Of a DNA stretch of 64,000 bases, positions 9,390-28,671 are shown piece after piece. The notes beneath the pieces were generated by a model, which saw nothing but the letters and a program-made list of their open reading frames with translations, was not told the DNA's origin and searched no databases. This DNA comes from Armatimonadota bacterium (GTDB lineage Bacteria; Armatimonadota; Zipacnadia; Zipacnadales; UBA5352). Positions within the stretch are counted from its first letter, which is position 1, and every line of letters starts with the position of its first letter. The stretch is taken from assembly GCA_034722055.1 (NCBI GenBank), contig JAYENL010000242.1, positions 72,609-136,608 of the forward strand, given 5' to 3'. Made by a program: the position numbers and the translations under genes.

Positions 9390-9471
9390 TTCCCCCGTTT
9401 CTCGCACTGGGTCGGCCTACATGCGCCTCCGCAGATCGAATCCGCCACGATGGCATCCAGTCCATTGAGCG

Positions 9472-11163: not shown

Positions 11164-12143
11164 CGGATCGGCTCCTTCTCGCTCTCACCGCTGCCCTCAG
11201 GCTCAGGGCAGGCAATCCGGCGAGCCACCTGCTCGGCCACCTCGATGTTGTCCTCGTCCAGCAGCGCGCCGGCGTAGTAGATGCGGTTCTCGTCCTCGCA
11301 GTGCCATACCCAGCCCCGCACCGCCTCCGGGTAGGGCTTGCCAATCACGTGCATCACGAAGGACTGCAGGTGCCGAAGCGGGTTGGAGAAGTAGCCGGTA
11401 ACCTCCACCGCCGGGTGCCCCCGGAAGCGGGTCTCCTCATAGGAGAGCTTGATGCCCTTGTGATACTGGCGGATCTCCGACCGGGCCCAGCTCTCCAGCG
11501 AGCGCTCGCGCAGCGACACATTCGCCATTCCCCACCGGGCCCCCACGAGCTCCTCGCCCCGGTCGGCGAAGTGCAGCTCGATGAGGCCCGCCATCAGCTT
11601 CTGGTTGGTCAGCTCAAAGCGCTCCGGCGTCTCCATCGTCAGGCCGTACGTTGACCAGGTGATCCAGTCCTCCTCGGGGTGGTCCTGCATGGTGCCGATG
11701 ATCTCGCCGGCCAGCTCCTGCCCATCCTCATCGGCAGTGGCCATCACCTGCATGACCACGACGCGCTCGCAGTCCTCGCAGTACCAGGCCGCCCCGTAGC
11801 CCTCCACCTCTCCGCGCCAGGCGAAGCAGTTGAGGTCGCGCTTGCCCATCCGCCGCTTGCTGACCACGCGGGCGTCGCGCTCCACGTCAATCTCCGGCTC
11901 GTCCCGCTTGCGCTTCTTGGTGAGGTCCCTAAGGTACTGGTCAACCACGCCCTCGACATCCACAAAGCCCGAGGCCGCCTGCCACTTGATCTCAACCCGC
12001 GGCATCTTGTCACGGTCGTCGATGCGCAGGTAGCCCTGCTTGCGGTCCCCGCTGATGGCCGCGATGTCCCAGTCCTGGGGCACATGCACGAGCACGCCTT
12101 GCCAGGCCCGTATCTGCCACTGATCCGTGTCGAGCTTCGCCAT
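11160..12143 (-). CDS. Conserved hypothetical protein with an internal two-fold repeat
   Basis: Halves begin WQGVLVHVPQDW and YGLTMETPERF and end WYCEDCER and WHCEDENR; GC-typical codon usage; overlaps the next gene by 4 nt. Confidence 0.7.
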   Translation of the reverse strand: MAKLDTDQWQIRAWQGVLVHVPQDWDIAAISGDRKQGYLRIDDRDKMPRVEIKWQAASGFVDVEGVVDQYLRDLTKKRKRDEPEIDVERDARVVSKRRMGKRDLNCFAWRGEVEGYGAAWYCEDCERVVVMQVMATADEDGQELAGEIIGTMQDHPEEDWITWSTYGLTMETPERFELTNQKLMAGLIELHFADRGEELVGARWGMANVSLRERSLESWARSEIRQYHKGIKLSYEETRFRGHPAVEVTGYFSNPLRHLQSFVMHVIGKPYPEAVRGWVWHCEDENRIYYAGALLDEDNIEVAEQVARRIACPEPEGSGESEKEPIR

Positions 12144-12164
12144 CTCACACAGCGCTCCGTGGGG

Positions 12165-13274
12165 TCAGAACACCATCTGCTCCCGGCGTATGTAGATGCT
12201 TTGGAGAATACCGATCGCCATCAGGTTCGCGACCAGACTGCTGCCACCGTAGCTTAGAAACGGGAGCGGCATGCCCTTGATGGGCGCCAGGCCGATGGTC
12301 ATGCCGATGTTGGCGTAGACCTGAATCAGGAACATCGCCACGATCCCCGCGGCCACCACCCGGTCAAAGGCGGTCAGCGCCCCCGCCGCCACGCTGATGC
12401 CCCGATACAGCAGCAGCCCGTAGAGCACCAGCACACTCGCGGCACCCACGAAGCCAAGCTCCTCCCCGACCACCGTAAAGACGAAGTCGGTCTCCTGGTC
12501 GGGGATGAAGGCGCTCTGGCTCTGCTTGCCCTGGAAGAGCCCCTGCCCCCACAGGTGCCCCGAGCCGACGGCGATCAGAGACTGGTGCAGGTGGTATGCG
12601 GCGCCGTAGGGGTCCTCTTCCGGGTGGATGAAGGAGGTCAGCCGCGCCTTCTGGTGGGGCTTGATGAGAGCGAAACCCCAGGCCCCGGCGAACAGCATGA
12701 TGCCCGCCAGGGCGAAGGCCGCAAGATGGCCGGGATTGGCCCCGTAGATGAACATCATGATCAGCCAGATGAAGAAGAGGACGATAGGGGTGCCCAGGTC
12801 GGGCTGCAGCAGGATCAGGAGGGCCGGCACCGCCACATAGCCGAGGGTTTTCGTGAGGAACAGGAAGTCCCACTTCTCCTCGTCCATGCGGGCCACCACG
12901 GCCCCAAGCATGACGATGACCGCCAGCTTGGCCAGCTCCGAGGGCTGCAGGTTGATGGGCCCCAGAGCGAGCCAGCGGGTGGTGCCCCGCACCGCACCGG
13001 CAGCCAGCACGATGACCAGCAAGCCCATCACAAACAGGTAGATGGGCCAGGCCAGCCCCTGCAGCTTGTTGGGGTCCACCAACATGGTGGCGACCAGCAC
13101 GCCCAGGCCGATGACCAGCCACACAAGCTGCATCTGCAGCTTGGCGGCCCCCGGCCTGCCCGCCGCCGCCAGATCGCTCTTGGTGCAGCTATAGATGGCC
13201 GCCGCGCCGATGATGCACAGCAGGACCACGACCGTCAGCATCTGGAAATCGGCGTGGCGCAGGTCCCTAAGCAC
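12165..13274 (-). CDS. rodA: Rod shape-determining protein RodA (SEDS family)
   Basis: GTTRWL.LGPINLQPSELAK, LQPDLGT, QSLIAVGSG, PDQETDFVF..VGEELGF, GMPLPFLSYGGSS; GTG start after GAGGG. Confidence 0.9.
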   Translation of the reverse strand: MLRDLRHADFQMLTVVVLLCIIGAAAIYSCTKSDLAAAGRPGAAKLQMQLVWLVIGLGVLVATMLVDPNKLQGLAWPIYLFVMGLLVIVLAAGAVRGTTRWLALGPINLQPSELAKLAVIVMLGAVVARMDEEKWDFLFLTKTLGYVAVPALLILLQPDLGTPIVLFFIWLIMMFIYGANPGHLAAFALAGIMLFAGAWGFALIKPHQKARLTSFIHPEEDPYGAAYHLHQSLIAVGSGHLWGQGLFQGKQSQSAFIPDQETDFVFTVVGEELGFVGAASVLVLYGLLLYRGISVAAGALTAFDRVVAAGIVAMFLIQVYANIGMTIGLAPIKGMPLPFLSYGGSSLVANLMAIGILQSIYIRREQMVF

Positions 13275-13312
13275 GCAGAGTCCCTCGCGGTGAATGTGGT
13301 GACTACGGCCGG

Positions 13313-13321
13313 AGTATAGCA
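13313..13321 (-). promoter_or_regulatory. Extended -10 promoter element upstream of rodA
   Basis: TGcTATACT on the minus strand about 40 nt upstream of the rodA start, in an AT-richer patch. Confidence 0.55.
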
Positions 13322-13448
13322 CAAATCAGGGGTCCGAGAAAGCTGCCGCCGCCCGACCGCATTGATCGGACGAGGCCGGACGGCATCGCATTGAAGGCGT
13401 CATGACCGCTGGCCGCCGCCGCACCCGCAGGCGCCTGCTTCCCGGCGC

Positions 13449-14240
13449 TCAGGGCATCGGCCAGTCTCCCTGGAACCCGGCGGCGTTGGGCTTGGTGGGC
13501 GGGCCCCAGTCACAGCACACGCCCGGCTCGCTCCCCCACGCCTCGGAGTGGTCGGGCGTGCCCTCATGGGCGAAGGGGCCGGCCGTCTTCTTGAACCACT
13601 CTGCATGGTAGTCGCAGAAGAGGAAGTTCTTGCCGCCATTATGCCACATCTCGTCGGGCTTGAGTGGATCGTCATGGGACTGGTAGACGTTCTGGCCCAG
13701 GGCGTCACCCCACGCGCCGGGCGGGTTGTTGCCCTTCTCGAAACACATGACCGTGGCGTGAGGCGCCGGAATGTCGTCCTTGTACCCGCCGATCGCGATG
13801 GTGGTGCCCCCCACGACCATCGGCCTCTGGGTGTACTGCGCGATGGCGTAAGACCTCGCTTCTCGCGCCTTCTCGTTGGGATTGTCGGGACAGATCAGGA
13901 GGCTCTCGTTCCGCAGATAGCTCATGATCGAGACGTCCCAGGTGGCGACTGAGGGGTCCGGAACATTGCGTATCGCCTCCGGCGGCGGTGTCCACGTGGG
14001 TGCCACGCCCGGGTGGGTTATGGACCAGGGGGGGATGAAGCCGCCGTTGTCCTGGATGTAGCCCTCGATGGCCTGCCCGATCTGCTGCATGTTCGAGAGG
14101 CACCGGGCCTGACGCGCCTTCGCCCGCGCCGACGCCAGGACCGGGAAGAGAATGGCCACCAGCACGGCGATGATGCCAATGACGGTCAGAAGTTCAATCA
14201 GGGTAAAGCCTGTGCGACGCGTTTGCGTTGCCAACGACAT
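13449..14240 (-). CDS. Prepilin-type N-terminal cleavage/methylation protein, DUF1559/H-X9-DG family (variant H-X9-DY)
   Basis: RRTG|FTLIELLTVIGIIAVLVAILFPV, CLSNMQQIG, CPDN, HNGGKNFLFCDYH; AGGAG SD. Confidence 0.88.
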   Translation of the reverse strand: MSLATQTRRTGFTLIELLTVIGIIAVLVAILFPVLASARAKARQARCLSNMQQIGQAIEGYIQDNGGFIPPWSITHPGVAPTWTPPPEAIRNVPDPSVATWDVSIMSYLRNESLLICPDNPNEKAREARSYAIAQYTQRPMVVGGTTIAIGGYKDDIPAPHATVMCFEKGNNPPGAWGDALGQNVYQSHDDPLKPDEMWHNGGKNFLFCDYHAEWFKKTAGPFAHEGTPDHSEAWGSEPGVCCDWGPPTKPNAAGFQGDWPMP

Positions 14241-14272
14241 CACACTCCTGTACACGCTCACGTTGGCCGGGC

Positions 14273-14947
<675 letters not shown>

Positions 14948-15179
14948 GCTCCATCCATCTCCACGCGAAAGGCCGCCCTCATGCCATCTGGTCGCCGACA
15001 GGTGGCGGCGTTCTTCGCTACGCCACCGGGCTCGTGCACGTGTGTCTACTAAACAGCCGACGGTGCCGTTTGTTCCTTGCGCCGGACACTCCGCCTTCCA
15101 GTGGAAGAACTGGACGCGGACCGGCGCAACCGGCGCCGGCCCGCGCTGTGTTCCTCGCGCTCTAACGGCTAGTGCTAAG

Positions 15180-15575: not shown

Positions 15576-17561
15576 CTAATAGGGCATCTGTGACACCGCC
15601 TGCCCAATCAGCGCGAAGGCCACCGATCCCATGCCTACCAGCCCCATTCCGCAGGCATAGCCGGCGCTGAGCACGGTGGCGTACTGCTTCCAGGTTCTGG
15701 CCCCGAACCTGGGGATCATGTAGTACTGGCTGACCAGCGCCCCGATCATCTCCGGGAAGACGAAGTGCGGCAGACGACCCAGTCCTCGAACGATGCCGTA
15801 CACCAGCAGCGTCGGCATCTGCAGCAGCGCCAGGACGCTGTAGGTGATAATCCCGAAGCCGAAGCCGCCCACCACGAACTGCCACTTGAAGGCCCGCTGG
15901 AAGAGGCTGTGCTCCGAGTAGGTGGCCGTCAGCCACAGGGTGCGCTGGTAGGCGCTGAGCGGCCACATCTTCTGCGCGTAGGGATAATTCGCAGACGGCA
16001 CGGGCGCCAGGCGCCAGATGAACTCCCAGTACAGCACACTGCATACCACCACGATGGGCAGGATCAGCAGCTCCGCCTTCACCAGCGAGATGACCTTGTT
16101 GCCAGTCAGCTCCAGGACCCGGAACTGCTGGGCCCGCTGGCCGTGATCGAAGTTGGGGATGGGCGCGAACCAGATGTCAATCCCCTCGTAGCCGCTGAGG
16201 ATGATCACGCCCTCCTTGACCATGGGGATGGATACCCACTGGCCGGTGAGGCCCTTCATGCGGGCGTCAACGTACGAGTTCAGCGGGGTGAAGAAGAAGC
16301 CGAAGAAGATCACCCAGGCAATCGGGAAGTCGGGCACCAGATGCCGGCACAGTAACACATACCCGGCAGTTGAGATGACGAACAGGCCGATGGCCAGCTT
16401 CAGCGAGATGTCGCCCCGTCCCGCCACTCCGGCGAGCGTCCCCGGCTCGTGCTCCCGGTCCTGTTGGTCGGCGAGCCTGTCGCGGTAGATGTGTGCCATG
16501 ATCCCGGCAATCCCGATGGCGGCAACGGCGAAGGCGGTGCCGATCTGAGCGCTGAAGTAGAAGTCCACCTGGTTGGCGAACTGGGTTTGAATGGTGTCCA
16601 TCCCCGGGTGCCATTCCTCGAGCGTGCCCACGCGGTAAAGGTAGGGGTTGAGCACGAAGGTGCCCAGCGCGGCGATGAAGCTGCCCACCACGGCCCAGAA
16701 CGGGACCACGAAGCCCGCGATGATGGCGCCCAGATCGACGGTGAAGCCGGTAGCCACCGCCGGCAGCACGTTCTCGGTGTTCCGCGTCAGGTCTACGAAG
16801 GGGATCGGCAGCAGTTGCAGCGGCTCAGTCATAATGACGCCGGTGATAGTGGGAATGCCAACGTAGAAGACTCCGAACACCAGCCCCACCATGGCGCCGA
16901 TGGCGAACACCCGCCACCGCCAGGTCTCTTCTTTGGTGGTCGTCTCCGCCAGGGCCGTGGAGCCCTGCGCGGTGATCGCCGCGTATGGGAAGGGCAGCCG
17001 CTCGTAGTCGGAGGTGATGCGGAAGAGCGCGTATCCCAGCCCGAACCAGTTCAGCCGGCTGAGGACGACACCGAGGAGCAGGATAGCCGCGGGGTAGTAC
17101 CAGTCGGGATGAAAGAAGGTGCGTTTCATCAGGGCCTGCGAGTCCGGCCCCGGGACCACCCAGTTGGGTATCTCGTAGGCGATGCCCATCCCCCGCGCCG
17201 CCGGCGAGCGAACGAAGTACTGCTCCCACATCTTCCCGGCGAAGGCGCCGCCGGCGAGCTGCAGGCCGCCGTGCGTGGATGCCAGCGCCGCGGCGACGTA
17301 GAAGAGGATGTATACCTCCTGGCGCTTGAGCGTGAGGAACGACCGCCGGGCAATCTCGGTGAAGAGGATGATGGTGGTCCACTCCGCCGCCGGTCCCAGG
17401 TTGCGCCCCGCCACCAGCCCCAGGTAGATGGCACCGGGCATCATCACCAGGCCGATGAACAGGCCCCCGATGATGGTCTTGACGTCAAAGCCGTCCTCGT
17501 ACTGCTCGGGCTGATCCATCAGCCCTCGGTAAAGCTCAAGTTCCGGGTCCAGGGGAGCCAC
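15576..17561 (-). CDS. OPT-superfamily-like polytopic membrane transporter
   Basis: 661 aa with many hydrophobic segments; ERLPFP motif and C-terminal SAGYACG resembling OPT/YSL signatures; GTG after GGAGG. Confidence 0.72.
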   Translation of the reverse strand: MAPLDPELELYRGLMDQPEQYEDGFDVKTIIGGLFIGLVMMPGAIYLGLVAGRNLGPAAEWTTIILFTEIARRSFLTLKRQEVYILFYVAAALASTHGGLQLAGGAFAGKMWEQYFVRSPAARGMGIAYEIPNWVVPGPDSQALMKRTFFHPDWYYPAAILLLGVVLSRLNWFGLGYALFRITSDYERLPFPYAAITAQGSTALAETTTKEETWRWRVFAIGAMVGLVFGVFYVGIPTITGVIMTEPLQLLPIPFVDLTRNTENVLPAVATGFTVDLGAIIAGFVVPFWAVVGSFIAALGTFVLNPYLYRVGTLEEWHPGMDTIQTQFANQVDFYFSAQIGTAFAVAAIGIAGIMAHIYRDRLADQQDREHEPGTLAGVAGRGDISLKLAIGLFVISTAGYVLLCRHLVPDFPIAWVIFFGFFFTPLNSYVDARMKGLTGQWVSIPMVKEGVIILSGYEGIDIWFAPIPNFDHGQRAQQFRVLELTGNKVISLVKAELLILPIVVVCSVLYWEFIWRLAPVPSANYPYAQKMWPLSAYQRTLWLTATYSEHSLFQRAFKWQFVVGGFGFGIITYSVLALLQMPTLLVYGIVRGLGRLPHFVFPEMIGALVSQYYMIPRFGARTWKQYATVLSAGYACGMGLVGMGSVAFALIGQAVSQMPY

Positions 17562-17624
17562 GTCACACCTCCGGCGGCAGTGAGATGGCAGTGTGCGACA
17601 GGATCGGCCGGCAATACCAACGCA

Positions 17625-20600
17625 TTACTGCGCCGTCTGCTGCAGGTCCTCCTCCCCCGCCAGGATGGCGCGCCCGCGTGCCCCGAAGTCGCCCTTCACC
17701 GGACTGGGCAACGTGCGCCACAGCAGGTACTGCTTGCGCAGCAGGTTGATGAAGTTGCGCGTCACCCGAATCCACGACGCCTCGTCACCGCTCTCCCGAC
17801 GGATCACAGCCCGAATCTGGAAGATCTCCGCGTCCTCCGTGGGCACCGTCTCGATCGTCAGGTGCTCCGACACCCCCAGGTCATAGGGCGCCAGCCAGAC
17901 CATCACGGAGAGCGCAAATCCCTCCCCAAGCTCGAACTCCTCGGCGTCCAGCCCCAGGTCACCTGTGGAGAAGTTGCCCAGCGAGTAGTCGGCATGCGCC
18001 CCCAGGTAGTCGAGAAGGAAGACGTTTACCCCCAGCGCCTGGTCGCCCGTCACCGTGAAGGGCAGGTTCATGCGCATGACGTCGTCCACAGGCTCGGGCA
18101 GCGTCCAGCGGCGCTCGATGCCCGGCATGGCGATATTGGAGGCCACCCGGGCCGGATAGATGACCGACAGCAGTACCGTGACCATGATCATCAGGGTGCT
18201 GCCCACGGCCGCCAGCGATGAGTAGTTGAGGTAGAGGCCGCCCAGCGCGCCGGTCATCAGCAGCACCTTCGCGGAGGCCTGGCCCACCAGGTAGCCCGCT
18301 ACCGCACCCAGCACCGCATAGACCGACGCCTCGGCCACGAAGAGGGCGGCGATGTGCGTGGGCGCCAGGCCCAGGGAGCTGTAGATGTGGATCTCGTTGG
18401 TGCGCTCGTAGACCGAGCCCAGCATGGTGTTGAGGACGATCAGGGCTGCGATGAGCACAGGGATGAGCACGTCGCTGGCGCCCTGCACCCCGGTCGTGCC
18501 CACGGCGCTGCACAGGTAGGTCTGGTCATCGACCCCGGCGTAGAGGTTCAGCTCGACACGCGACATCAGGTTTTCGAGGTGCGTCAGGACGCTCTCGGCG
18601 TCGGGAATGCCGATGGCCACCGAGCGCAGCGTGCCCCCGGCGTTGACGACGAAGTTGTAGGGCACAATGAGCACAGCGTCCGGGGTGAGGTGGATGTACT
18701 CCCGGAGCTCGTCCTCGCTCATCTGGTCCTCGCCGGCCTGCATGGACTGCCGCTGCGCCTGCTGCTCCTGCATCAGCAGGTAGTCCACAGGGGTGATCTG
18801 CTCCCCATCGAGGTCCTCGATGCGCTTGAAGCGGTCGCTGTCGATGATCCCCAGCACTCGCAGGCGGGTGCCGAAGACCGACACGAAGACGTTCCCCACA
18901 TCCTGGGGCTGGATGTTGAGCTTCTCGGCCATCTCCTGGGGCACGATGCAGGCCAGGGTGTCATCCTCGGTGAACCACCGACCACCCTCATCCAGCGCCC
19001 TCTGGGGCTCGCTGATCATCGCCTCCTCGGGCGTCAGCCCCACCATGGCGGTGGCGGAGTAGCTGTCCCCCGCCCGCGACACGTTCACGAAGGACTGCTC
19101 GCCGACGCGACTGGAGAAGTACCATGCCCGCGGGGCCACAGAGTACTCATCGCCGAACTCATTGCGCATCACCCGCGTGGTCGGCTGCCCGATAGGCGTC
19201 CAGGTCTTCTCCCGGATCATGATGCCGTTATACGCCGCGGTGTGCGGCAGCCGGATGCGGTTGGTGCGAATCGTCTGCTTGATGGAGGTCGTTGACAGCA
19301 CCGTGAAGGTCAGCAGCACCAGTGTGGTGCAGGTCAGCAGCGTTCGGATCTTGCGCCGGCGCATGTTCGAGATACCCAGACCGAAGGCCGCCGCCGAGGC
19401 TGAGAGCCGACCCACGTCCGCCTCGCGCACCCCCGTCTGCTCCCAGCGCATCTCGCGCATCTGCTCCTCGAACTTCTGCACCACGATCCCCACCACGATG
19501 ATTGTCAGCGCCAGGATGATGAAGGCCAGCAGGATGATCATGGGCGTGAAGGTGATGGCGAATGCGGGATGCACCAGGCCGATGAGGATGAAGATGCCCA
19601 CAAAGAACGCCACTGTGCCGAGGATCTGTCCCTTGATCTCGCGCGCAGCCAAGAAGAGCCGTTCGGCAAACACCCCGAAGGGCATCAGCAGCGCCAGGTA
19701 GAACAGCACACCCTTGACCACGTCGTCGGCGGTCTTGCGGACATCCGGGTAGGCTCGGGACTCGTAGCTCCACGCCGACCGCGCGGCTGTGAAGAACTCA
19801 TCGTACTTGCGCTCCCGGAGGTACTGCTGCGACAGCTTCAGGTACTCCAGCGCCTCCGCGTGGGCCCGCTCCACCCGCGCGTTGGTGATCCCGTGCTTCG
19901 AGAGCTTGGCCATGCGGTTGTCGTCGAGCTGCCACATGTCCATGGCCACCCGGTAGGGCGTGGCGTGAAGCGACGGGTGGCGGTCCACCAGGTAGCCCTC
20001 CCCCAGCTCCTCCAGCTCCGTGGGATTGATCAGCAGGAAGCGCAGTCCCAGGAGGCTGGCGCCCATGGTGATCTTGACCTTGGTGCCCGACGGAGCGAAG
20101 ACCACGGCCACCGGCTCGTAGCTGGACGTGAACTGCTGCGGCGGAAGCGGCAGGCAGTAGCCGTACTCGTAGGGAGCCGCATCGGTCTGGGCGTCGTAGA
20201 CGTGCAGCTCCCGCAGGAGCTGGAAGAACCGCTGGTCCACCATATCGAAGATGGCCACCGGCTTGCAGTCGAACATCACCACCGTTACCGGCTTAACCTC
20301 CTGATCCATGGCCACCTTGTTCGGGTAGGCCTCGGCGCCGGTCACCCCCAGGTCGGGGGCCATACGCACCCGCCCGTCCTCCTCGTCGAGCAGGTAGGCC
20401 TCAACGGTGATGGTGCCGCCCCGCGCCCGGGAGTTGGGCAGTCCCGGCAGGTAGAACCTGCCGTCCTCGTCCACGATGTCGAAGATCTCGCTGCGCACGC
20501 CCATGGAGGTCTTGGAGCCGGTGCGCGCCACCGCTACCGCGCCCGGTAGGGGATCATCGGGGAACAGGCTCTCGCGGGGGTTGAACTGCACCGCCCGGCC

Positions 20601-22583
20601 CTTGATCTCCACGAAGTTGTCGGCCAGCTCCAGATCGTAGAGATCGCGCGGATCGTCGATGGACACCAGGTCCAGCAGCAGACAGGACAGAAAGCGCGTC
20701 TGCTCCACGAGGTTGCTTATCTCCACGTGCTCGATGCGGTCCATCGGCGTGTCAACCCACGGACGCGAATCGTCCACGGTCGCGAAGCCCAGCCCGGGAA
20801 TGCCCGCCAGCGTGGCCACCTCATTCGACAGCGCCAGCTTGCCGGCCATGTAGGTCTGCCAGCTCTTGCCCTGAATGGCGTTGATCCCGTCCACCAGACG
20901 CACCGGAACGCCCAGGGCGGTGGCGATGAGGTCGGAGTACTCCCGGGCCTTCTTGCCGATGTCCGAGAACTTCCACTGGATGCTCTCACTGTAGTTGTAG
21001 AAGTAGGCCTTGTAGAAGATGCCGAAGGTGTCGTTGTGGCTGGACAGATCCACCGAGAACCACAGGTATATCTTCTTCTCGGAGAAGTCCAGGGTGTCAA
21101 CGAGGTTCCAGGCCGCCTCCTTCACCCGTGCCAGCATCTGCTTTTTCGTCTCAAGGGGGGCGTCCCGATCCACCTCTCGGGCCTCCCGGAGCACCTCCCG
21201 CGCACGCTCCACGGCCTGGTCGATCTCCGGACCAACCGCCTCGAACTCCCGCACCAGCTCCTGGCGCTCGGCGAGCTCCTCCTCCGTCAGCCGATACTCC
21301 TCCAGCTTGCCGGCGTTGGGGTCATCGTGCTTGGCCGCACGCACCACCTTCCCGAGCTTGTGTGCGCGCTTGGATGCGTAGGTGACGGCCCTGTTGATGC
21401 GCCCCAGCGCGCGCATGCGCTCGTCTGCCAGCTCCTCGGCCGTCTTCTCCTCCTCCAGCCGGTCGGGATCCTCCCAGACGCGGGCAATGGCGTCCTCCAG
21501 CTCAGCACGGGCGTCACCGACGAGGTTGAACATGATCTCCACGCGCCGCTCGCCATGAGCGCCGCGGATGAACTGGCGGAGGAAGTGCTTGGTGCCGGCC
21601 AGGCCTTCGAAGTGCCCGGAGGTGGCCAGGAACACGACCGTGCGCTTGGGGGGCTGATCCACGAAGGCCTCAGCGAGCTGCATCAGCGCCGCAATGGAGC
21701 AGGCATTCTCGGCGCCGGGGGCCTGGTCGGGCGTCACGGCGATGGAGTCGTAGTAGGCCTGGATGACGACGCGCTGGTTGCTCAGCCGCGGGTCCGTACC
21801 CGGGAGGGTGGCCACCACGTTCTCGCCCTCCACCCGCCGCCACTGCATATCACAGGCGATCCTCACCGGCACCTCGTCGCGGGACATCAGCAGGCCCATC
21901 AGGTAGTCGGCGGCCTCGCGGGCGATCCAGTAGCGGGGGATATCCACGGGGATGGAGAGGAACTTCGCCTCCGCCTCCCCACGGATGGTCTCCTCCGGTT
22001 CGATAAAGAGCACCGCCTTGGTCCCCAGCAGTGGCCCGTTGAACCACTCCGTCTGGCAGTTGAAGTCCACCATGGTGATGGAGTCGGTGACCTCCAGCCC
22101 GTTGAAGGCCCGCAGGTTGCCGGGACCGGCGTAGATGAGGTTTCCCTCGATGCCCCCGGTCGGGGTCTGGGGCGGGCGCACCAGGTTGGGCCATATCGGC
22201 AGCATCCCGAAGCTGGTGCCGTCGTCAGCAACGGTGATGGAGGCGTAGCGCCCCTGCTCGTCGGGCTCGGCCATGGGTATGACCAGGGGGAAGCTCTCGA
22301 GGTGCACGTCCTCCAGGCCCAGCGCCCGGAACTGCTCGGCGATCGTCCGGGCGGCCTTCTTGCAGCCGTCGTAGCCGGTCACGCGCGACTGCAGGGCCTC
22401 GAAGTCCGCGATGAGCTGGCGCATGTGCTGCTCATCGACGCCGGAGGCCGCCATCTCGTAGTCGGTATCCGACTCGAGGACGATCTCCTCCTCGTGGCCG
22501 CCCTGCCCCCATACGGGGGCTGCGGCGACGGCAAGCGCCATGATGCATGTCGGCCAGACTATCGCCCTCAGTGGACGAAGCAC
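17625..22583 (-). CDS. 1652-aa fusion: signal peptide, PA/M28-peptidase-like domain, extracytoplasmic region, TM bundle, MacB/FtsX permease
   Basis: SRVTGYDG, ENVVATLPG, VVIQAYYDS...APGAEN, PPKRTVVFLATSGH.EGLAG (M28 fold); SNMRRRKIRTLLT and NTMLGSVYERTNEIHIYSSLGL (FtsX). Confidence 0.85.
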   Translation of the reverse strand: MLRPLRAIVWPTCIMALAVAAAPVWGQGGHEEEIVLESDTDYEMAASGVDEQHMRQLIADFEALQSRVTGYDGCKKAARTIAEQFRALGLEDVHLESFPLVIPMAEPDEQGRYASITVADDGTSFGMLPIWPNLVRPPQTPTGGIEGNLIYAGPGNLRAFNGLEVTDSITMVDFNCQTEWFNGPLLGTKAVLFIEPEETIRGEAEAKFLSIPVDIPRYWIAREAADYLMGLLMSRDEVPVRIACDMQWRRVEGENVVATLPGTDPRLSNQRVVIQAYYDSIAVTPDQAPGAENACSIAALMQLAEAFVDQPPKRTVVFLATSGHFEGLAGTKHFLRQFIRGAHGERRVEIMFNLVGDARAELEDAIARVWEDPDRLEEEKTAEELADERMRALGRINRAVTYASKRAHKLGKVVRAAKHDDPNAGKLEEYRLTEEELAERQELVREFEAVGPEIDQAVERAREVLREAREVDRDAPLETKKQMLARVKEAAWNLVDTLDFSEKKIYLWFSVDLSSHNDTFGIFYKAYFYNYSESIQWKFSDIGKKAREYSDLIATALGVPVRLVDGINAIQGKSWQTYMAGKLALSNEVATLAGIPGLGFATVDDSRPWVDTPMDRIEHVEISNLVEQTRFLSCLLLDLVSIDDPRDLYDLELADNFVEIKGRAVQFNPRESLFPDDPLPGAVAVARTGSKTSMGVRSEIFDIVDEDGRFYLPGLPNSRARGGTITVEAYLLDEEDGRVRMAPDLGVTGAEAYPNKVAMDQEVKPVTVVMFDCKPVAIFDMVDQRFFQLLRELHVYDAQTDAAPYEYGYCLPLPPQQFTSSYEPVAVVFAPSGTKVKITMGASLLGLRFLLINPTELEELGEGYLVDRHPSLHATPYRVAMDMWQLDDNRMAKLSKHGITNARVERAHAEALEYLKLSQQYLRERKYDEFFTAARSAWSYESRAYPDVRKTADDVVKGVLFYLALLMPFGVFAERLFLAAREIKGQILGTVAFFVGIFILIGLVHPAFAITFTPMIILLAFIILALTIIVVGIVVQKFEEQMREMRWEQTGVREADVGRLSASAAAFGLGISNMRRRKIRTLLTCTTLVLLTFTVLSTTSIKQTIRTNRIRLPHTAAYNGIMIREKTWTPIGQPTTRVMRNEFGDEYSVAPRAWYFSSRVGEQSFVNVSRAGDSYSATAMVGLTPEEAMISEPQRALDEGGRWFTEDDTLACIVPQEMAEKLNIQPQDVGNVFVSVFGTRLRVLGIIDSDRFKRIEDLDGEQITPVDYLLMQEQQAQRQSMQAGEDQMSEDELREYIHLTPDAVLIVPYNFVVNAGGTLRSVAIGIPDAESVLTHLENLMSRVELNLYAGVDDQTYLCSAVGTTGVQGASDVLIPVLIAALIVLNTMLGSVYERTNEIHIYSSLGLAPTHIAALFVAEASVYAVLGAVAGYLVGQASAKVLLMTGALGGLYLNYSSLAAVGSTLMIMVTVLLSVIYPARVASNIAMPGIERRWTLPEPVDDVMRMNLPFTVTGDQALGVNVFLLDYLGAHADYSLGNFSTGDLGLDAEEFELGEGFALSVMVWLAPYDLGVSEHLTIETVPTEDAEIFQIRAVIRRESGDEASWIRVTRNFINLLRKQYLLWRTLPSPVKGDFGARGRAILAGEEDLQQTAQ

Positions 22584-22774
22584 GTTTCCCTCACCGCCTC
22601 TGGAGAGATAGGAAGACCCGGCGGCCGAAGCACAGCCCGACAGAGACAGAGCTGGCGCGCGACACTTCGCCGCGCGCCAGCCTTACGCCTGCCCCGCTGC
22701 GCGCAGCGCCGCCGACCGCCCGCTCGGGCGGTAGCATTCCGGCGGCCCGCCGCTGCCGGCCTGCGTCCCAGCGG

Positions 22775-23683
22775 CTACTCGCCGTGCTCCGGCGCCGACT
22801 CGCTACCCAGAGTGCCGACGTCCAGGTCCAGGTCGGCGCGGTTCTCGATGCGCTCCACCTGCCCGTCGCGCACGTGCACGACGCGGTCGGACACGTCAAT
22901 CATCTTCAGGTCGTGCGTCGCCGAGATGAGGGTGACGCCGCTCTCCTGGTTGAGCTCCTTGAGCAGATCGATGATCTCCTTGCCGGTCTGCAGGTCCAGG
23001 TTCCCGGTGGGCTCGTCGGCCAGGATGATGGCCGGGTTGTTGGCCAGCGCCCGCGCCACTGCTACACGCTGCTGCTGTCCCCCGGACAGCTCGTAGGGCT
23101 TGTGGTGCAGGCGCTCGCCCAGACCGACCAGGTCCAGCAGCATAGCGCCGCGATCCATCATGTCGTCGCTGCTCATGCCTGCGAAGATCATGGGCAGCGT
23201 CACGTTCTCCAGCGCCGTCATGACCGGGATGAGGTTGAAGGTCTGGAAGATGTAGCCGATCTTCCGGCAGCGCAGCCACGCCAGCTCAAAGGCGTCGAGC
23301 TGCGCCATGTCAACCTCCTCGATGAAGCACGTGCCCTTGGTGGGCTTGTCCAGCCCGCCCACCATGTTGAACAGGGTGGTCTTTCCCGACCCGGAGGGGC
23401 CCATGATGGAGAGGTACTCCCCCCGGCGCACGTTCAGCTCCACGCCCTTCAGCGCGGGCACCTCCACCTCTCCCATCTGGTAGACCTTGTGGAGGTCCTT
23501 GGTGCGCACGATGAACTCGTGGGTGGTCACCGAGTCGTCGCGCGCCACGTCGCGCAGCCGCTCGCGGCGATGGCCCAGCTCCTCCATGACTTCCCGCAGG
23601 TCAGCGCCGCACTCCGGGCACACAGTGACAAGCCCGGTGGTCTCTATGACATGACCGCATTCGGGGCATTCGATCTCCGCCAT
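22775..23683 (-). CDS. ABC transporter ATP-binding protein (LolD/MacB type) with N-terminal zinc ribbon
   Basis: CPECG...CPECG N-terminus; GPSGSGKTT Walker A, LSGGQQQRVAVARAL, ILADEPTGNLD, ATHD. Confidence 0.92.
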   Translation of the reverse strand: MAEIECPECGHVIETTGLVTVCPECGADLREVMEELGHRRERLRDVARDDSVTTHEFIVRTKDLHKVYQMGEVEVPALKGVELNVRRGEYLSIMGPSGSGKTTLFNMVGGLDKPTKGTCFIEEVDMAQLDAFELAWLRCRKIGYIFQTFNLIPVMTALENVTLPMIFAGMSSDDMMDRGAMLLDLVGLGERLHHKPYELSGGQQQRVAVARALANNPAIILADEPTGNLDLQTGKEIIDLLKELNQESGVTLISATHDLKMIDVSDRVVHVRDGQVERIENRADLDLDVGTLGSESAPEHGE

Positions 23684-23735
23684 TGTCCGCTCTCCTCACT
23701 GCCGGCGGTCGTCGCCGGCCGATGATGAATGGTAT

Positions 23736-24452
23736 TCAGATCTCTGTCTGCAGCGCGGCCGCCGGGCGCATTCGTGCGGCCCGCACCGCCGGCGGCACCG
23801 CCGCCAATAGCGACAGGAAGGTGCCTATGATCACCGCGACGCCGATGTACTCCAGCATCTGGCCCCAATCCATCCACGCCGCCACATCCGACTGCTTGGT
23901 CAGGTAGACCAGCAGCATCACGCCGTGCCCCACAAGGGCACCGGCGATCGAGCCCAACAGCCCCAGCACCGCTGACTCTATCAAAAACAGCCGCACAATG
24001 AACTCGTCCAGCGCCCCCAGGCACTTCATCGTCCCGATCTCACGGAACCGCTCCGTCACCGACATCAGCATGGAGTTGGTGATCCCCACCGCCGAGACCA
24101 GCAGGGACATCACCACCAGCCACGTCTGCCGGGCCGCCCGCGCCTGCTCCTCCAGCTTGGCCTCCTCCGCCCCGGGCGCCAGCTCCGTCTCCTCCTGGGT
24201 GATAGCCCGGGCCCTCTGCGCCTCGGACTGCGCCATCCCGTCCTGGGCCACCTTCGCCGTCCACACCGAGACCAGGAAGGCGATGCCCAACACCACCCCT
24301 GCGCCGGTGATCAGCGCCCGGCCCAGGCGCATGGTGACATTCCGGTAGCTGATGCGCGCAGCCTCGGCCCACGGCAACGATATCTGCCGCTGCACCTCAC
24401 CCCAGTCGCTCTCACCATCGTACATCCTTCTCGCAAGCTCGGGTTTGATCAT
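23736..24452 (-). CDS. Small FtsX-like ABC permease
   Basis: RALITGAGVVLGIAFL TM1, short helical loop, GITNSMLMSVTERFREIGTMKCLGA, PAVRAARMRPAAAL. Start ATG 24452 or 24425. Confidence 0.85.
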   Translation of the reverse strand: MIKPELARRMYDGESDWGEVQRQISLPWAEAARISYRNVTMRLGRALITGAGVVLGIAFLVSVWTAKVAQDGMAQSEAQRARAITQEETELAPGAEEAKLEEQARAARQTWLVVMSLLVSAVGITNSMLMSVTERFREIGTMKCLGALDEFIVRLFLIESAVLGLLGSIAGALVGHGVMLLVYLTKQSDVAAWMDWGQMLEYIGVAVIIGTFLSLLAAVPPAVRAARMRPAAALQTEI

Positions 24453-24831: not shown

Positions 24832-25383
24832 ATGCCCGATGCCGCCAGCTCATCCCCCCGCGGCCGCGCCTGGCGCATCGCCATGCGCGTGATCGTTCCG
24901 GTGGTCTTCGCCGCCGCCCTGTGGTATCTTTTCACCGAGGTGGTGCGCTTCGGCTATGTGGTGAGCTCGTCCATGGAGCCCACACTGCAGGTCGGCGACT
25001 ACTACACCCTCCGCGTGGACGCCTACGACGGCAACAACAGCCCGCAACGCGGCGAAATCGTTGTGTACAGCGGTCCCGATGGGGCGCCCTATGTCAAGCG
25101 CGTCATCGGCCTCGGCGGCGAGATGATCGAGGTCTGGTTCGGACACGTCCTGGTCAATGGTCAGCGCCTGCGAGAACCCTACGTCACTGGCGTCCCTGTG
25201 ATGGAGCCCCCGCGGCGAGCATATGTTCCGCCGGGCACTGTCTTCGTGTTAGGCGACAACCGCGAGATGAGCGAGGACAGCCGCGACTACGGCCCGGTCC
25301 CCGTGGATCGGCTCATGGGACGGGTTACCAAGATCGTCTGGCCGCGCCAGCGCGTCCGCGCCCTCAAACCGACCCAGTACTAA
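24832..25383 (+). CDS. lepB: Signal peptidase I
   Basis: SSSMEPTL (catalytic Ser), YVKRVIG (catalytic Lys), VLGDNREMSEDSRDYG; single N-terminal TM. Confidence 0.93.
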   Translation: MPDAASSSPRGRAWRIAMRVIVPVVFAAALWYLFTEVVRFGYVVSSSMEPTLQVGDYYTLRVDAYDGNNSPQRGEIVVYSGPDGAPYVKRVIGLGGEMIEVWFGHVLVNGQRLREPYVTGVPVMEPPRRAYVPPGTVFVLGDNREMSEDSRDYGPVPVDRLMGRVTKIVWPRQRVRALKPTQY

Positions 25384-25429
25384 TGGCCGCTGTTCCCTAT
25401 GCTTAGCGTAGTGCACCGCTTACCGATTG

Positions 25430-26755
25430 TCAAGCGCCCTCCTCGTCCTCCTGTGTGCCGGCCTCCAGCAGCGCCTCAGCAGCACTCAGACGCCCGCTGA
25501 GCGTCCACCTGAGAGCCTGTCCCAGCCGCTGCCGAACCGGCTTCCACTCCCCCAGCGGCAGGCCCGCAGCGCCTGGAAGCGTCGCCACGTGTCCCGCCCA
25601 CCGCGGGTCGTCCGCGAACTGCCGTCGGTGCCGGCTGATGGCGGGGACACCATAGAGCGCCGCCAGCGTCCGCTGGCACTCCCCTCCGGCTATGAAGCGC
25701 AGAAAGCGACCGGCCACGTGGGGCCGATCGGTGTCCGCGAAGGTCACCAGCCACTCCACCTGCACCTGACCCGAGCCATCCTCCGCCAGCGGCAAGGGCG
25801 CCACCGCCCATGGCAGGGGAGGAGGCGGCTCGGGCTTCTCCTCCGCCTCAGCGGCCGCCGCCAGCCGATCCCGCTCGGCGTCCTTCTCCTCCAGTATCCG
25901 CGCTGCCCACGGGCGTGCAATCAGCAGCCCCAGCCGACCGTCGGCAAACAGCTCCACCAGCTCCGTCTCGCTCCAGGTCAGCACCTCCGGCTGCACAGCG
26001 CCCCGCGACTGCAGGTCCACGAGAAGGTCGATTCCCGGCAGGTAGCGGGCGTCGCCCTCCACATCCTCGGCCGGTCCCTGCGCCCAGGTCAGCGCGTGCA
26101 CCAGCTCCTCACAGCCCCGGCCGGGCGCCGGCACCCCCAAGCCGAAACGCCCCGGAGGGTCCGCCAGCTCGTCGGCACATGTCACCAGCTCGGCGGGCGT
26201 CGCCGGGACCTCCAGCTCCGCCTCCTCCAGCAGGTCCGGACGGTAGTACAGCGCCAGCGTCGAGACCGTCCACGGCACCCCGCGCAGCGCGCCGCCGGCA
26301 CGGTCCACCACTGAGCTCTCGCACTGACGCCGGAGCCTCAGCACCAGGTCCCGGGGCAGCGGCATCAGCTCGTTGCGGTGCTCCCAGGCCCACAGGTCGG
26401 GCAGCACAGTAACGTCCGGAGCGTGGGAGCGGTAGCTGCCCAGCCATCGCCGCACATACTCTCCGGCCAGCTCGGCGTCCTGCCACTCCAGGGCGATGAC
26501 CACATCCGGATTGGCGCGCTGGAAGCTGAAGACAAGCTGCTTGAGGGCCTCCCTCTCGCCGGGCACGTGGGTCCGCCACAGGCACACCTGCAGATTGGTG
26601 CGCGGCTGCTGGCGGCCCTCCCCTTCGGCATCAGCGGGCGGCAACCACGCCACCAGCGCCAGGACACACACAGATGTGGCCGCGACGAGAGCGCCGCGGC
26701 CACGGTGAGACAGCGGAACGCGATCTGCCGTGCGACCTACACCCAATCGGCCCAC
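25430..26755 (-). CDS. Extracellular solute-binding protein (sugar ABC SBP family 1-like); start uncertain
   Basis: F..ANPDV, APDV, GVPW..STLALYYRPDLL, P.T..EL, F.DG.LG, W.VAPLP motifs. Confidence 0.75.
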   Translation of the reverse strand: MGRLGVGRTADRVPLSHRGRGALVAATSVCVLALVAWLPPADAEGEGRQQPRTNLQVCLWRTHVPGEREALKQLVFSFQRANPDVVIALEWQDAELAGEYVRRWLGSYRSHAPDVTVLPDLWAWEHRNELMPLPRDLVLRLRRQCESSVVDRAGGALRGVPWTVSTLALYYRPDLLEEAELEVPATPAELVTCADELADPPGRFGLGVPAPGRGCEELVHALTWAQGPAEDVEGDARYLPGIDLLVDLQSRGAVQPEVLTWSETELVELFADGRLGLLIARPWAARILEEKDAERDRLAAAAEAEEKPEPPPPLPWAVAPLPLAEDGSGQVQVEWLVTFADTDRPHVAGRFLRFIAGGECQRTLAALYGVPAISRHRRQFADDPRWAGHVATLPGAAGLPLGEWKPVRQRLGQALRWTLSGRLSAAEALLEAGTQEDEEGA

Positions 26756-26756
26756 C

Positions 26757-28619
26757 TCACGGCCTGACCTCGCGGATGGTGAGGCCGATGGTGACCTTGA
26801 CCTTCATGGGCTCCTGCTGCTGGGCCTGGCCCATGCCACCCATGCCCGCACCGCCGGGCATGCCAAACATCTCTCCCGGCATGCCGCCCATGCCCATCTC
26901 ACCGGGCATCTGCATCATCCCGGCCTCTCCGGGCATCCCGGGCATCCCGGGCATACCGGGCTGGGCCATTCCGGGCTCCCCCGGCATCATGCCACCCTCC
27001 ATCCCTGGGGGCATCATTGCTCCAGGGCCCATCGGCTCCATGGGCATGCCGCCCAGGCCTGGGCCCATGCCCATCTCACCCATGCCCGCAGCGGCCCGCT
27101 GGACCTCAAAGCTGTGGGTGATGGTGTCCACGACGCGCACCGGACGGTCGAGCTGGTAGGCCCACCAGGTAATGCGCTCGCCAGTGTAGGAGGTGTCCAC
27201 CTCGGCGCTGGCGCCACCGCCCATGCCGCCCATGCCCGGCCCCGCGCCCATGCCGGCGGCCATCTCGTCGCCGAACGCCATACCGCCACCCATCTCAGGC
27301 GGCATGCCGCCCATCATCTCGCCCGGCATGCCACCCATCATCTCACCGGGCATACCGCCGAAGGGCTCGCCGCCGAGAACTCCGCCACCGCCCGCGGCCC
27401 CGCCGCCGGGGATGGTGATGGTGTCATCGTCCACGCTGTAGGTGCTGCGGATGCGCACGGTGGGCTGGTCCGCGACCCACTCGAAGCCCTCAACGGTGTG
27501 CTTGGCGCGGACCGTCCTGGTCTCCAGCTCGTCAAGGGGGCTGCCGGGCCCGGCTGCCGCGCCCATGCCCTCAGCGCCCATGCCCGGCTCTCCGGGCATG
27601 CCCATCATGCCAGCCTCTCCGGGCATGCCGCCGGGGACCATCCCTGGGCCCATGGCTTCGGGCCCCATGCCTCCCGGTTCCATGCCGCCCATAGGTCCCA
27701 TTCCGGGCCCCATTGCTCCCGCCTCGCCCATCCCGCCAGCGGCGCCCGTCACGGTTCCCCTGAGAGGATCGGGGAAGATGGTCATGCTCCCCTCCCAGGA
27801 GTCGCCCACCCGCACCGGGCGGTCGGGAAGCGGCACGAGCATCTCCGCCAGCTCGAAGCGCGGCTCATCATCGTGCTTGAGTTGCATCTCGCCCTCAGCC
27901 AGCGCGAGGTAAGTTGTGTACATCTGGTTGAGACCTCTCGCCTTCAGAGCATCCACGTGCCTCAGGGTCGAAACGTCGCCCGTCCCATACTGGGTGCCCG
28001 CGCGGCCCGCCACCACGTGCAGCACGGCGTGGCCGGCGGCGATGCTGGGGCTCATGACCTTGTTCTTCCAGTTGGCCACCAGGGCCCCATTGTACTCCTT
28101 GGCCAGGGTGTAGACGTCCTCGGCGTCCTCCTCCTCGGGGTCCGGCTTCATGTCCCACCGGCCCTCGGCCCGGTAGTGGACCTCCGCATTGCGGGTGTAC
28201 CACAGCCGCAACGGGACCCGGCTGGGGGCCTCGGAGGCCGCCATGGCGTTCTTGAGGGTCACGGTGATGGAGGCCTCCCCCACCTTCCTGCCGCTGGGGT
28301 TGAGGGCCACCGCGGTGAGGGTGTACTGGCCGTCGGGGTAGAGGTCCTTGCCGTCCTCGTCGCGGTCGCGGGTGTTCCAGACGTAGCTGAACGGGGAGGT
28401 GACAGCGGTCACGAACTCCCCCTCGCCGCCCCGTTCCACCTTGTAGGAGATCCAGCCGTCGTCAGGATTGGGCTTGGTGGCCCGCAGCCTGACCATATCT
28501 CGAACGGTGTCCCCGTCCTCTGGGGTGATAAACCGCACTCCCTGGGCCTGAGCCGTCAGGCACAGGCCCACCAGGATGATGGCAAGCAGGGCAGTCAGGA
28601 CAGGTGTGTGCCGTCGCAT
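26757..28619 (-). CDS. Secreted Ig-like domain protein with three Gly/Met/Pro-rich low-complexity tracts
   Basis: ATG 28619 after purine-rich SD; signal peptide; ITPEDGDTV...PFSYVWNT...DGQYTLTAVA (bacterial Ig-like); GMPGE / GGM repeats. Confidence 0.78.
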   Translation of the reverse strand: MRRHTPVLTALLAIILVGLCLTAQAQGVRFITPEDGDTVRDMVRLRATKPNPDDGWISYKVERGGEGEFVTAVTSPFSYVWNTRDRDEDGKDLYPDGQYTLTAVALNPSGRKVGEASITVTLKNAMAASEAPSRVPLRLWYTRNAEVHYRAEGRWDMKPDPEEEDAEDVYTLAKEYNGALVANWKNKVMSPSIAAGHAVLHVVAGRAGTQYGTGDVSTLRHVDALKARGLNQMYTTYLALAEGEMQLKHDDEPRFELAEMLVPLPDRPVRVGDSWEGSMTIFPDPLRGTVTGAAGGMGEAGAMGPGMGPMGGMEPGGMGPEAMGPGMVPGGMPGEAGMMGMPGEPGMGAEGMGAAAGPGSPLDELETRTVRAKHTVEGFEWVADQPTVRIRSTYSVDDDTITIPGGGAAGGGGVLGGEPFGGMPGEMMGGMPGEMMGGMPPEMGGGMAFGDEMAAGMGAGPGMGGMGGGASAEVDTSYTGERITWWAYQLDRPVRVVDTITHSFEVQRAAAGMGEMGMGPGLGGMPMEPMGPGAMMPPGMEGGMMPGEPGMAQPGMPGMPGMPGEAGMMQMPGEMGMGGMPGEMFGMPGGAGMGGMGQAQQQEPMKVKVTIGLTIREVRP

Positions 28620-28671
28620 CGCCCTTCCCCTTTCAACGACCCGTCGAAGCTCATATGCTCCGCCTCCAGCC

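Follow-up and report, generated by a model that had tools for sequence, protein, structure and literature searches.

A 64,000-nt stretch of DNA from an Armatimonadota bacterium (contig JAYENL010000242.1), referred to as the window, carries genes of a putative transport system that combines an ATP-binding cassette (ABC) motor with OPT-like membrane proteins. At its centre are four open reading frames (ORFs), all intact on the minus strand with zero internal stops, which encode a small FtsX-type permease (mini-FtsX), an ATPase, a giant membrane-anchored subunit and an OPT-like protein. The gaps between them, in this order, are 52, 191 and 63 bp with no overlaps, so that the description of four co-oriented and tightly spaced genes, given in an initial annotation of this DNA, is fair. 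GC content of the four-gene locus resembles that of the remaining window, and the named relatives come from Armatimonadota. The genome (G000) is 6.1 Mb in size and 93% complete. A scan of the window for promoters and terminators returned matches at chance level, and no RNA holder is on record for the window. The four genes and two additional ones in the window that belong to the same subject are as follows (position, strand, product, basis of assignment):

23736–24452, minus: mini-FtsX permease, 238 aa from ATG, four transmembrane (TM) segments; PF02687 (E = 3e-17) and TM scan
22775–23683, minus: ABC ATPase of the LolD/MacB/FtsE type, 302 aa; PF00005, best NCBIfam model LolD, below cut-off
17625–22583, minus: giant subunit, 1652 aa from GTG; Pfam, M28 motif columns, structure model and fold searches
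15576–17561, minus: constant membrane protein of predicted OPT/YSL fold, 661 aa; predicted model and fold searches
11160–12143, minus: soluble two-repeat protein of 327 aa, fifth core gene; recurrence beside the OPT-like gene in other loci
38937–40943, plus: DUF6785/DUF6784 gene, candidate exchangeable carrier subunit; PF20581 (E = 1e-132) and PF20580

Components encoded at the locus

The first three genes have the hallmarks of a type VII ABC system. PF02687 was detected in both mini-FtsX and the giant subunit, and the four-TM arrangement of FtsX-type permeases was recovered by the TM scan and in the model of the giant. Mini-FtsX, present in G000 as a single full-length copy, has four hydrophobic segments with about 47 residues separating TM1 from TM2. 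In contrast to the giant, it has no periplasmic core domain, and it likely complements the giant as second subunit of a type VII membrane dimer. The ATPase has intact Walker A, Q-loop, LSGGQ, Walker B and H-loop motifs as well as an N-terminal CxxC..CxxC zinc ribbon. Its best NCBIfam model is LolD, with 235 bits against a cut-off of 308; models of energy-coupling factor (ECF) ATPases give 149–151 bits against cut-offs of 315–330. Every listed NCBIfam match of the permeases and the ATPase stays below its cut-off, and none of the three could be assigned to a named type VII system (LolCDE, MacAB or FtsEX). Both the asymmetry of the ABC parts and the LolD/MacB type of the ATPase had been noticed in the initial annotation and are borne out.

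The giant subunit, for which the database entry (1638 aa) starts at an ATG 14 codons downstream of the GTG, consists of a signal peptide, an M28-like domain (PF04389), three extra TM segments (residues 955–1034) and the 1+3 TM pattern of FtsX. A PA domain was detected in its relatives, and the M28-like domain carries a helical insert. We modelled residues 640–1645 (predicted local distance difference test, pLDDT, 83). The predicted layout comprises a transthyretin-like β domain (fold-search Z 8.1–9.2), a three-helix stalk, the three extra TM helices, a MacB/LolC-type module (best match 9o9x, Z 14.8, root mean square deviation (rmsd) 18.3, 336 aligned residues) and a C-terminal domain. In this model the periplasmic core domain resembles that of MacB-like 3ftj (Z 12.6, rmsd 4.8, 183 aligned), and the cytoplasmic C-terminal domain appears helix-grip-like, a middling match (Z 8.0–8.2, rmsd 3.1–3.7, ~113 aligned). 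Fold searches relate the FtsX module to MacB, YtrF, HrtB, LolC/E and YbbP. The stalk bundle (~780–955) also matched chain S of glycosylphosphatidylinositol (GPI) transamidase (Z 10.6, rmsd 2.0 over 80 residues), an enzyme that also includes an M28-like subunit; we did not read the match as homology, since generic three-helix bundles reach Z 9.5–10.0 in the same search. In Poribacteria (loci L064–L086) the giant is enlarged to ~2440 aa, in one case with LysM-like matches.

Canonical M28 peptidases have His, Asp, Glu, Asp and His as zinc ligands and a catalytic Glu. The corresponding columns were read from 80 aligned rows, 45 bacterial and 35 distant or archaeal, in which the register may be off by one. 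The Glu-Glu pair at 323–324 occurs in none of the 80 rows (a single Glu, at 324, is seen in one archaeal row), its place being taken by GH and a variable residue. At the position of the first His ligand, all 45 bacterial rows have Tyr or Phe and 20 of the 35 distant ones have His, and the last His is absent from all 80. Loss of the Glu-Glu pair together with altered or absent His residues indicates that the giant is not a standard peptidase, and the earlier label of a pseudopeptidase stands as far as the canonical active site is concerned. D279 (80/80 rows), H324 (74/80) and D512 (78/80) are kept, and, judging from these columns, the domain may possibly have an altered active site.

The 661-aa protein has no Pfam match, and a sequence search of PDB with it was empty up to E = 10; PF03169 (OPT) is matched by three of five close and five of nine distant relatives. 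Barley YS1 is the sole PDB match of its model (pLDDT 91), both in Foldseek (7wst and 7wsr, E = 5e-10 and 4e-9, TM-score 0.61–0.68) and in the VIA fold search (Z 21.5, rmsd 4.2 Å, 549 aligned residues; next match Z 5.8). The protein is accordingly modelled with the OPT/Yellow-Stripe core-plus-scaffold fold, in agreement with the OPT-like permease of the initial annotation. The accessible part of PMC9691689 describes YS1 as a proton-coupled elevator-type homodimer, joined via scaffold domains and needing no ATPase. In OPT-like helices 387–455 no acidic position is more than 70% conserved, and there is no residue-level mapping onto Asp446, Asp490 and Asp494, the proton-binding acidic residues in the core of YS1. 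A domain scan found Reg_prop (β-propeller), WD40, PDZ or FGE-sulfatase-like inserts near residue 550 in seven of 12 OPT-like relatives (P0122, P0123, P0126, P0131, P0137, P0140 and P0143). A second OPT-like paralog of G000 (L004, 12693–16383, contig C298), 52% identical, is solitary and convergent with LptC- and LptA-like genes.

Linked genes and their joint occurrence

GTDB contigs were scanned with the alignment of the giant. At least 580 relatives were obtained among at least 598 matches, and the best 80 loci, coming from Armatimonadota, Poribacteria and Latescibacterota, were analysed. The OPT-like gene is present in 67 of the 80 and follows the giant in 59 of the 66 loci whose downstream DNA extends for at least 2.3 kb; among the other seven, four have a DUF6785 gene upstream instead. 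ATPase and mini-FtsX precede the giant in all 30 close loci with at least 2.5 kb of upstream DNA, and the ATPase adjoins mini-FtsX even in split loci. Two additional genes recur, namely, a homologue of 11160–12143 (23/80 loci) and a gene for a PqqD/RRE protein (PF05402; 18/80). The full order giant, OPT-like, 327-aa, PqqD, mini-FtsX and ATPase was seen in four of ten stretches from other genomes, the remaining ones splitting the operon or containing two systems; one of the four, L257, has PqqD fused to mini-FtsX. The 327-aa gene lies directly 3′ of the OPT-like gene in Poribacteria and Latescibacterota loci and also in L256, L257, L260 and L262. In G000 it is 3.4 kb downstream of the OPT-like gene, and PqqD is on contig C100, each as one copy. 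The 327-aa protein arose by internal duplication (HHalign probability 90, E = 2e-6; at most 0.7 in 15 shuffles). It falls into no Pfam or NCBIfam family and has no PDB relative (one match, E = 0.27), and its named neighbours in the Atlas score below 0.9. An apparent lack or fusion of mini-FtsX in Poribacteria was rejected: a single full-length copy is present elsewhere in all five Poribacteria/Latescibacterota genomes tested, and in Poribacteria it has its own ATPase alongside.

Several loci depart from the common form. The PqqD-type protein of G000 (L087, ~8370–9248) contains an acidic linker, and cysteines are clustered at its C-terminus; a PqqD query against six genomes gave three matches. 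Two whole systems stand in tandem in L258–L259 (genome G193, contig C51), with several ATPases, two mini-FtsX proteins and two PqqD-type domains. The outer loop of mini-FtsX has a 400-residue insert in L262 (12802–14670), and the ATPase is lengthened to 612 aa in L256 (4489–6324).

The seventh part is DUF6785. G000 encodes 37 such proteins with a median identity of 28.5%, along with two giants, two OPT-like proteins and one copy each of mini-FtsX, the 327-aa protein and PqqD. The OPT-like and DUF6785 families are homologous (HHalign probability 88, E = 3e-6; the Atlas agrees). In a quick tree of 52 rows they split with support of 100, both families including bacterial and distant (archaeal) members and DUF6785 having the longer branches. 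The OPT-like gene of the window represents the constant, usually single-copy member of the pair, and DUF6785 the variable one. Two near-identical proteins of 2089 aa consist of a whole giant joined to a whole DUF6785, a natural fusion in one lineage. Among 70 loci fetched by distant OPT-like proteins, the giant is present in 50, DUF6785 in 37 and the triad of DUF6785, giant and OPT-like genes in 32; of the 26 that span at least 14 kb, 22 have the triad and four the giant with the OPT-like gene. Archaeal names (Bathyarchaeia, Brockarchaeota and Thermoproteales) were obtained for three of ten distant proteins looked up, the other seven being uninformative, and a few high-GC distant loci look bacterial. 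One low-GC distant locus adds mini-FtsX and two ATPases. Co-occurrence in other genomes, which the initial annotation had put forward as a check, was found across phyla and into archaea, with adjacency conserved at ~25–30% identity. When the 80 close and 70 distant loci were clustered (ORFs of at least 70 aa), the families listed included neither an adaptor or outer-membrane factor nor a precursor peptide or modifying enzyme that recurs across lineages. No paper on DUF6785/6784 was found in the literature library searched.

Two side observations concern DUF6785 and the giant in G000. One DUF6785 protein (L182, 5272–9093, contig C319) has ~600 extra N-terminal residues outside any Pfam family. 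The second giant gene (L003, 5548–12406, contig C240) is 39% identical to the first; an upstream DUF6785 gene overlaps its start, and neither an ATPase nor mini-FtsX is nearby.

Joint presence and absence was assessed in 201 genomes of Armatimonadota with a completeness of at least 80%, the giant being searched by its N-terminal part. Searches detected the giant in 165 genomes and the OPT-like protein in 170: both in 164, neither in 30, the giant only in one (80% complete) and the OPT-like protein only in six, of which five were retested and all five have the giant gene. The 30 negatives, a negative being a genome in which the core was not found by the searches made, were compared with 45 positives (the seven discordant genomes together with 38 of the 164, which were chosen by hand with regard to completeness and spread over families). 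DUF6785 occurs in 0/30 core-negative and 45/45 core-positive genomes, in one to at least 20 copies. The split is similar for the 327-aa protein (0/30 versus 40/45), mini-FtsX (E = 1e-35; 0/30 versus 43/45) and PqqD-type proteins (E = 1e-8; 3/30, weak and partial, versus 44/45). DUF1559, another expanded family taken as a control, is present in 30/30 core-negative genomes. The presence/absence split falls within families and genera (family f16, 5/17; genera g22, 1/5, g43, 2/3 and g86, 1/2), so the pattern does not reflect one inheritance event. Taken together, these observations make it very probable that the seven parts, namely, mini-FtsX, ATPase, giant, OPT-like protein, 327-aa protein, PqqD/RRE protein and DUF6785, belong to one system.

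As for other genes of the window, two DUF1559 prepilin-type pseudopilins (13449–14956, minus strand) lie directly 3′ of the OPT-like gene, and the family is present in 26 of the 80 close loci; it was rejected as a dedicated part because of its presence in every core-negative genome. The 327-aa gene stands in a row with rodA/ftsW and a gene for a secreted TPR protein (9472–13322, minus strand; 21-bp gap and 4-bp overlap), and the 327-aa/TPR pair was seen again in five close loci. A gene set at 24832–28712, which encodes divergent signal peptidase I, a solute-binding protein of sugar type and a secreted protein of 651 aa containing long stretches rich in Gly/Met/Pro, sits upstream of the operon in close relatives only. 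DarT (PF14487) and macrodomain DarG at 7631–9407 (minus strand) make up a DarTG toxin–antitoxin pair, with GC content at third codon positions below that of the neighbours.

Possible mode of action and alternatives

We tentatively favour, at slightly less than an even chance, a reading in which one constant ATP-driven core serves exchangeable DUF6785 carriers for the uptake of organic nutrients, in the style of ECF transporters. Its stronger form is doubtful: a new class of primary active importers, with an ancient type VII ABC motor mechanically driving elevator-type OPT carriers and serving dozens of swappable DUF6785 subunits that confer specificity. In such a machine the giant and mini-FtsX would pair as an asymmetric dimer with two ATPases, and the constant OPT-fold protein would dock onto the extra three-helix membrane module of the giant. 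A DUF6785 paralog would pair with the OPT-fold protein, as YS1 protomers do via their scaffold domains, and would set specificity. The catalytically remodelled PA/M28 outer domain may bind cargo or a cargo-bearing protein, and an ATP-driven stroke of the FtsX stalk may load or move the elevator core of the carrier, with the PqqD/RRE and 327-aa proteins as putative cytoplasmic adaptors. The docking step was addressed by complex prediction for the OPT-like protein and giant residues 864–1109, which scored 0.35 compared to 0.00 for the best control, with contacts agreeing at 68% or more and partner pLDDT of at least 68. In calibration, 116 of 157 solved pairs attained the mark, as did two of 215 mismatched ones; with scores at or below 0.60, 18 of the 157 solved pairs and both mismatches did so. 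The prediction weakly suggests this contact.

The reading is favoured by the joint presence and absence, the copy numbers, the linkage and the two natural fusions, and also by data from Fervidibacter sacchari, in which WP_018195293.1 shares a 90% cluster with an OPT-like protein from the analysed loci. According to the accessible part of PMC11535203 and its supplement, this protein is flat across five polysaccharides (484–571 thousand, adjusted p 0.84). WP_259093227.1, annotated there as 'M28 family peptidase', is about the twentieth most abundant transcript and its protein is likewise flat (adjusted p 0.19); with no direct match, it is presumably the giant subunit of F. sacchari. An FtsX permease and a PqqD protein of this organism have neighbouring accessions, and both were detected. 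The same part of PMC11535203 sees an indication of peptide use in M28 peptidases and an OPT transporter; the system itself is not described there. No WP accession of a F. sacchari DUF6785 paralog was found among the listed members of 10 clusters. In genomes, DUF6785 neighbours include many glycoside hydrolase (GH) and carbohydrate-binding families, no more than background. Beside the distant loci, genes for GH130, URO-D-like, B12-binding and Gfo/Idh/MocA proteins recur (5–10 of 70 loci for each). Small glycans or peptides would be the best guess for the cargo, judging from the family and the lifestyle of the hosts.

A number of observations weigh against an ATP-driven importer with exchangeable carriers. 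The solved type VII systems MacB, LolCDE, FtsEX and HrtBA export, extract or activate, and do not import. The glutamate of the RxxAExG motif is kept in 29 of the 37 DUF6785 proteins of G000 and could couple protons. No homologues of the 327-aa protein or PqqD were detected in the 70 distant loci. The Fisher p-value for the joint occurrence (1e-21) is overstated, because related genomes are not independent, and some genomes have two or three giants or two whole systems, so that sharing of the core is not strict. DUF6785 neighbours fall into carbohydrate-degrading or -binding families in 21 of 96 cases, compared to 16 of 94 control genes (p 0.47); genes were classified by eye, 96 of 111 picked neighbours were used, and four of 20 random control regions, which overlapped the locus or DUF6785 loci, were swapped for hand-picked ones. 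The transcript for WP_018195293.1 varies 3.4-fold over eight substrates in the accessible data of PMC11535203, and YS1 is proton-driven and functions without an ATPase, as stated in the part of PMC9691689 cited above.

Several other explanations deserve consideration. The core might be a machine dedicated to OPT-fold carriers, for their assembly, activation or quality control, DUF6785 proteins being ordinary proton-coupled carriers once built. This would likewise account for strict dependence and a single-copy core, and would suit a core containing a peptide-binding RRE and a soluble two-repeat protein, as well as the candidate proton-binding glutamate in 29/37 DUF6785 proteins. Inactive M28 domains are protein-binding parts in nicastrin, nicalin and transferrin receptor, which also counts in favour of such a machine. 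However, the permanent giant–DUF6785 fusion is more easily reconciled with a partner in fixed stoichiometry than with an assembly factor acting catalytically, a chaperone needs no constant OPT-fold subunit, and the whole core is kept in genomes with one DUF6785. We regard this explanation as unlikely. Comparably unlikely is a machine working outwards, an exporter or envelope builder, in which RRE would bind a peptide or protein tail, the OPT-fold pair would move or flip it, and the motor would extract it or present it to the M28 domain, perhaps for anchoring. The fold relatives of the FtsX module (MacB, YtrF, HrtB, LolC/E and YbbP), the PqqD–mini-FtsX fusion in one genome, the possibility of an altered active site left by conserved D279, H324 and D512, and the GPI-transamidase match of the stalk are all compatible with it. 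Yet generic bundles score nearly as high as the stalk match, none of the components expected of an exporter (adaptor, outer-membrane factor, precursor or modifying enzyme) recurs across lineages among the families listed for ORFs of at least 70 aa in the 80 + 70 loci, and characterised OPT/YSL proteins are uptake carriers in the accessible parts of PMC3061005 and PMC9691689.

The proposal of the initial annotation amounts to a self-contained four-protein importer with the 661-aa protein as its sole channel, to which the ABC motor would hand cargo caught by the pseudopeptidase domain, or which it would energise; DUF6785 proteins would then be separate carriers. Linkage of the four genes stood up, with contiguity in 30/30 close loci for mini-FtsX and ATPase and in 59/66 for the OPT-like gene, and the weakly predicted OPT-like/giant contact (0.35 versus 0.00) agrees with it. 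The set turned out to be incomplete, at least three more parts (the 327-aa protein, PqqD/RRE and DUF6785) belonging with it: four proteins alone leave unaccounted for the distribution of DUF6785 (0/30 versus 45/45), the occurrence of the triad in 22 of the 26 distant loci of at least 14 kb, the giant–DUF6785 fusion and the linked 327-aa and PqqD genes, which makes this version improbable. Least probable of all, with hardly any weight, is mere co-location, the ABC system and OPT-type carriers being co-inherited for one lifestyle with no physical coupling. In its favour, the parts lie apart on the chromosome in Poribacteria and in some members of Latescibacterota and Armatimonadota; against it stand the two natural fusions and an adjacency that is conserved between bacteria and archaea at ~25–30% identity.

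The system is present in 82% (164/201) of the sampled Armatimonadota and also in further carbon-cycling bacteria and archaea that are uncultured. DUF6785, with up to dozens of copies per genome, gains a testable role, and F. sacchari, which produces the constant OPT-like protein, is a cultured organism. Should the motor drive the carriers, the transport mechanism would be new to the papers searched. In the stronger form given above, the machine would be a main route of nutrient uptake in Armatimonadota, Poribacteria, Latescibacterota and Bathyarchaeia-like archaea, and the boundary between ABC and secondary transport would be blurred.

Comparison with known systems

The component families are known, and their combination did not turn up in the literature searched. 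No description of the combined machine was found there, most subscription journals and bioRxiv supplements being outside its reach, and no ABC-linked OPT is described in the accessible parts of PMC3061005, on OPT genome context, and PMC2678158, which mentions archaeal OPT. As the initial annotation had supposed, the set matches no characterised transporter in the searches made.

In RiPP (ribosomally synthesized and post-translationally modified peptide) export and processing clusters, an RRE goes together with a precursor peptide and a modifying enzyme; the present system has an RRE, and no recurring modifying enzyme was seen among the families listed for ORFs of at least 70 aa. PA-containing M28 peptidases and pseudo-peptidases share PA and M28 domains with the giant, which differs in having GH and a variable residue for the Glu-Glu pair, Tyr or Phe for the first His (45/45 bacterial rows) and no last His (80/80). 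The OPT family (TC 2.A.67), represented by barley YS1 (7wsr/7wst), shares the whole-chain fold, and the cut-off of PF03169 is passed by eight of 14 scanned relatives. Identity to YS1 is 11–13%, and YS1 is a proton-driven homodimer in the accessible part of PMC9691689, whereas here there are two sister families, constant OPT-like and variable DUF6785, found only together with the ABC module in the genomes searched.

Type VII ABC systems (MacB, LolCDE/LolF, FtsEX, YtrEF, HrtBA and YbbAP) share the LolD/MacB-type ATPase, the FtsX 1+3 TM pattern and the MacB-like core domain of the giant, and the membrane dimer is likely a heterodimer, as in LolC/LolE. In contrast to them, mini-FtsX lacks the periplasmic core domain, and the giant is larger by ~950 residues of PA, pseudo-M28 and β domains, by three additional TM helices and by a helix-grip-like domain on the cytoplasmic side. 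The system also differs in its link to OPT-fold carriers, RRE and a novel soluble protein, and its loci showed neither an adaptor nor an outer-membrane factor.

Group II ECF transporters consist of a shared EcfAA′T module and exchangeable S components. The genomic logic is the same in both cases, one energising module and many scattered divergent membrane subunits that occur only with it. The folds are not common to the two, with type VII FtsX here versus EcfT, and 660-residue OPT-like carriers versus small S components. The likeness to ECF transporters is therefore one of analogy rather than membership.

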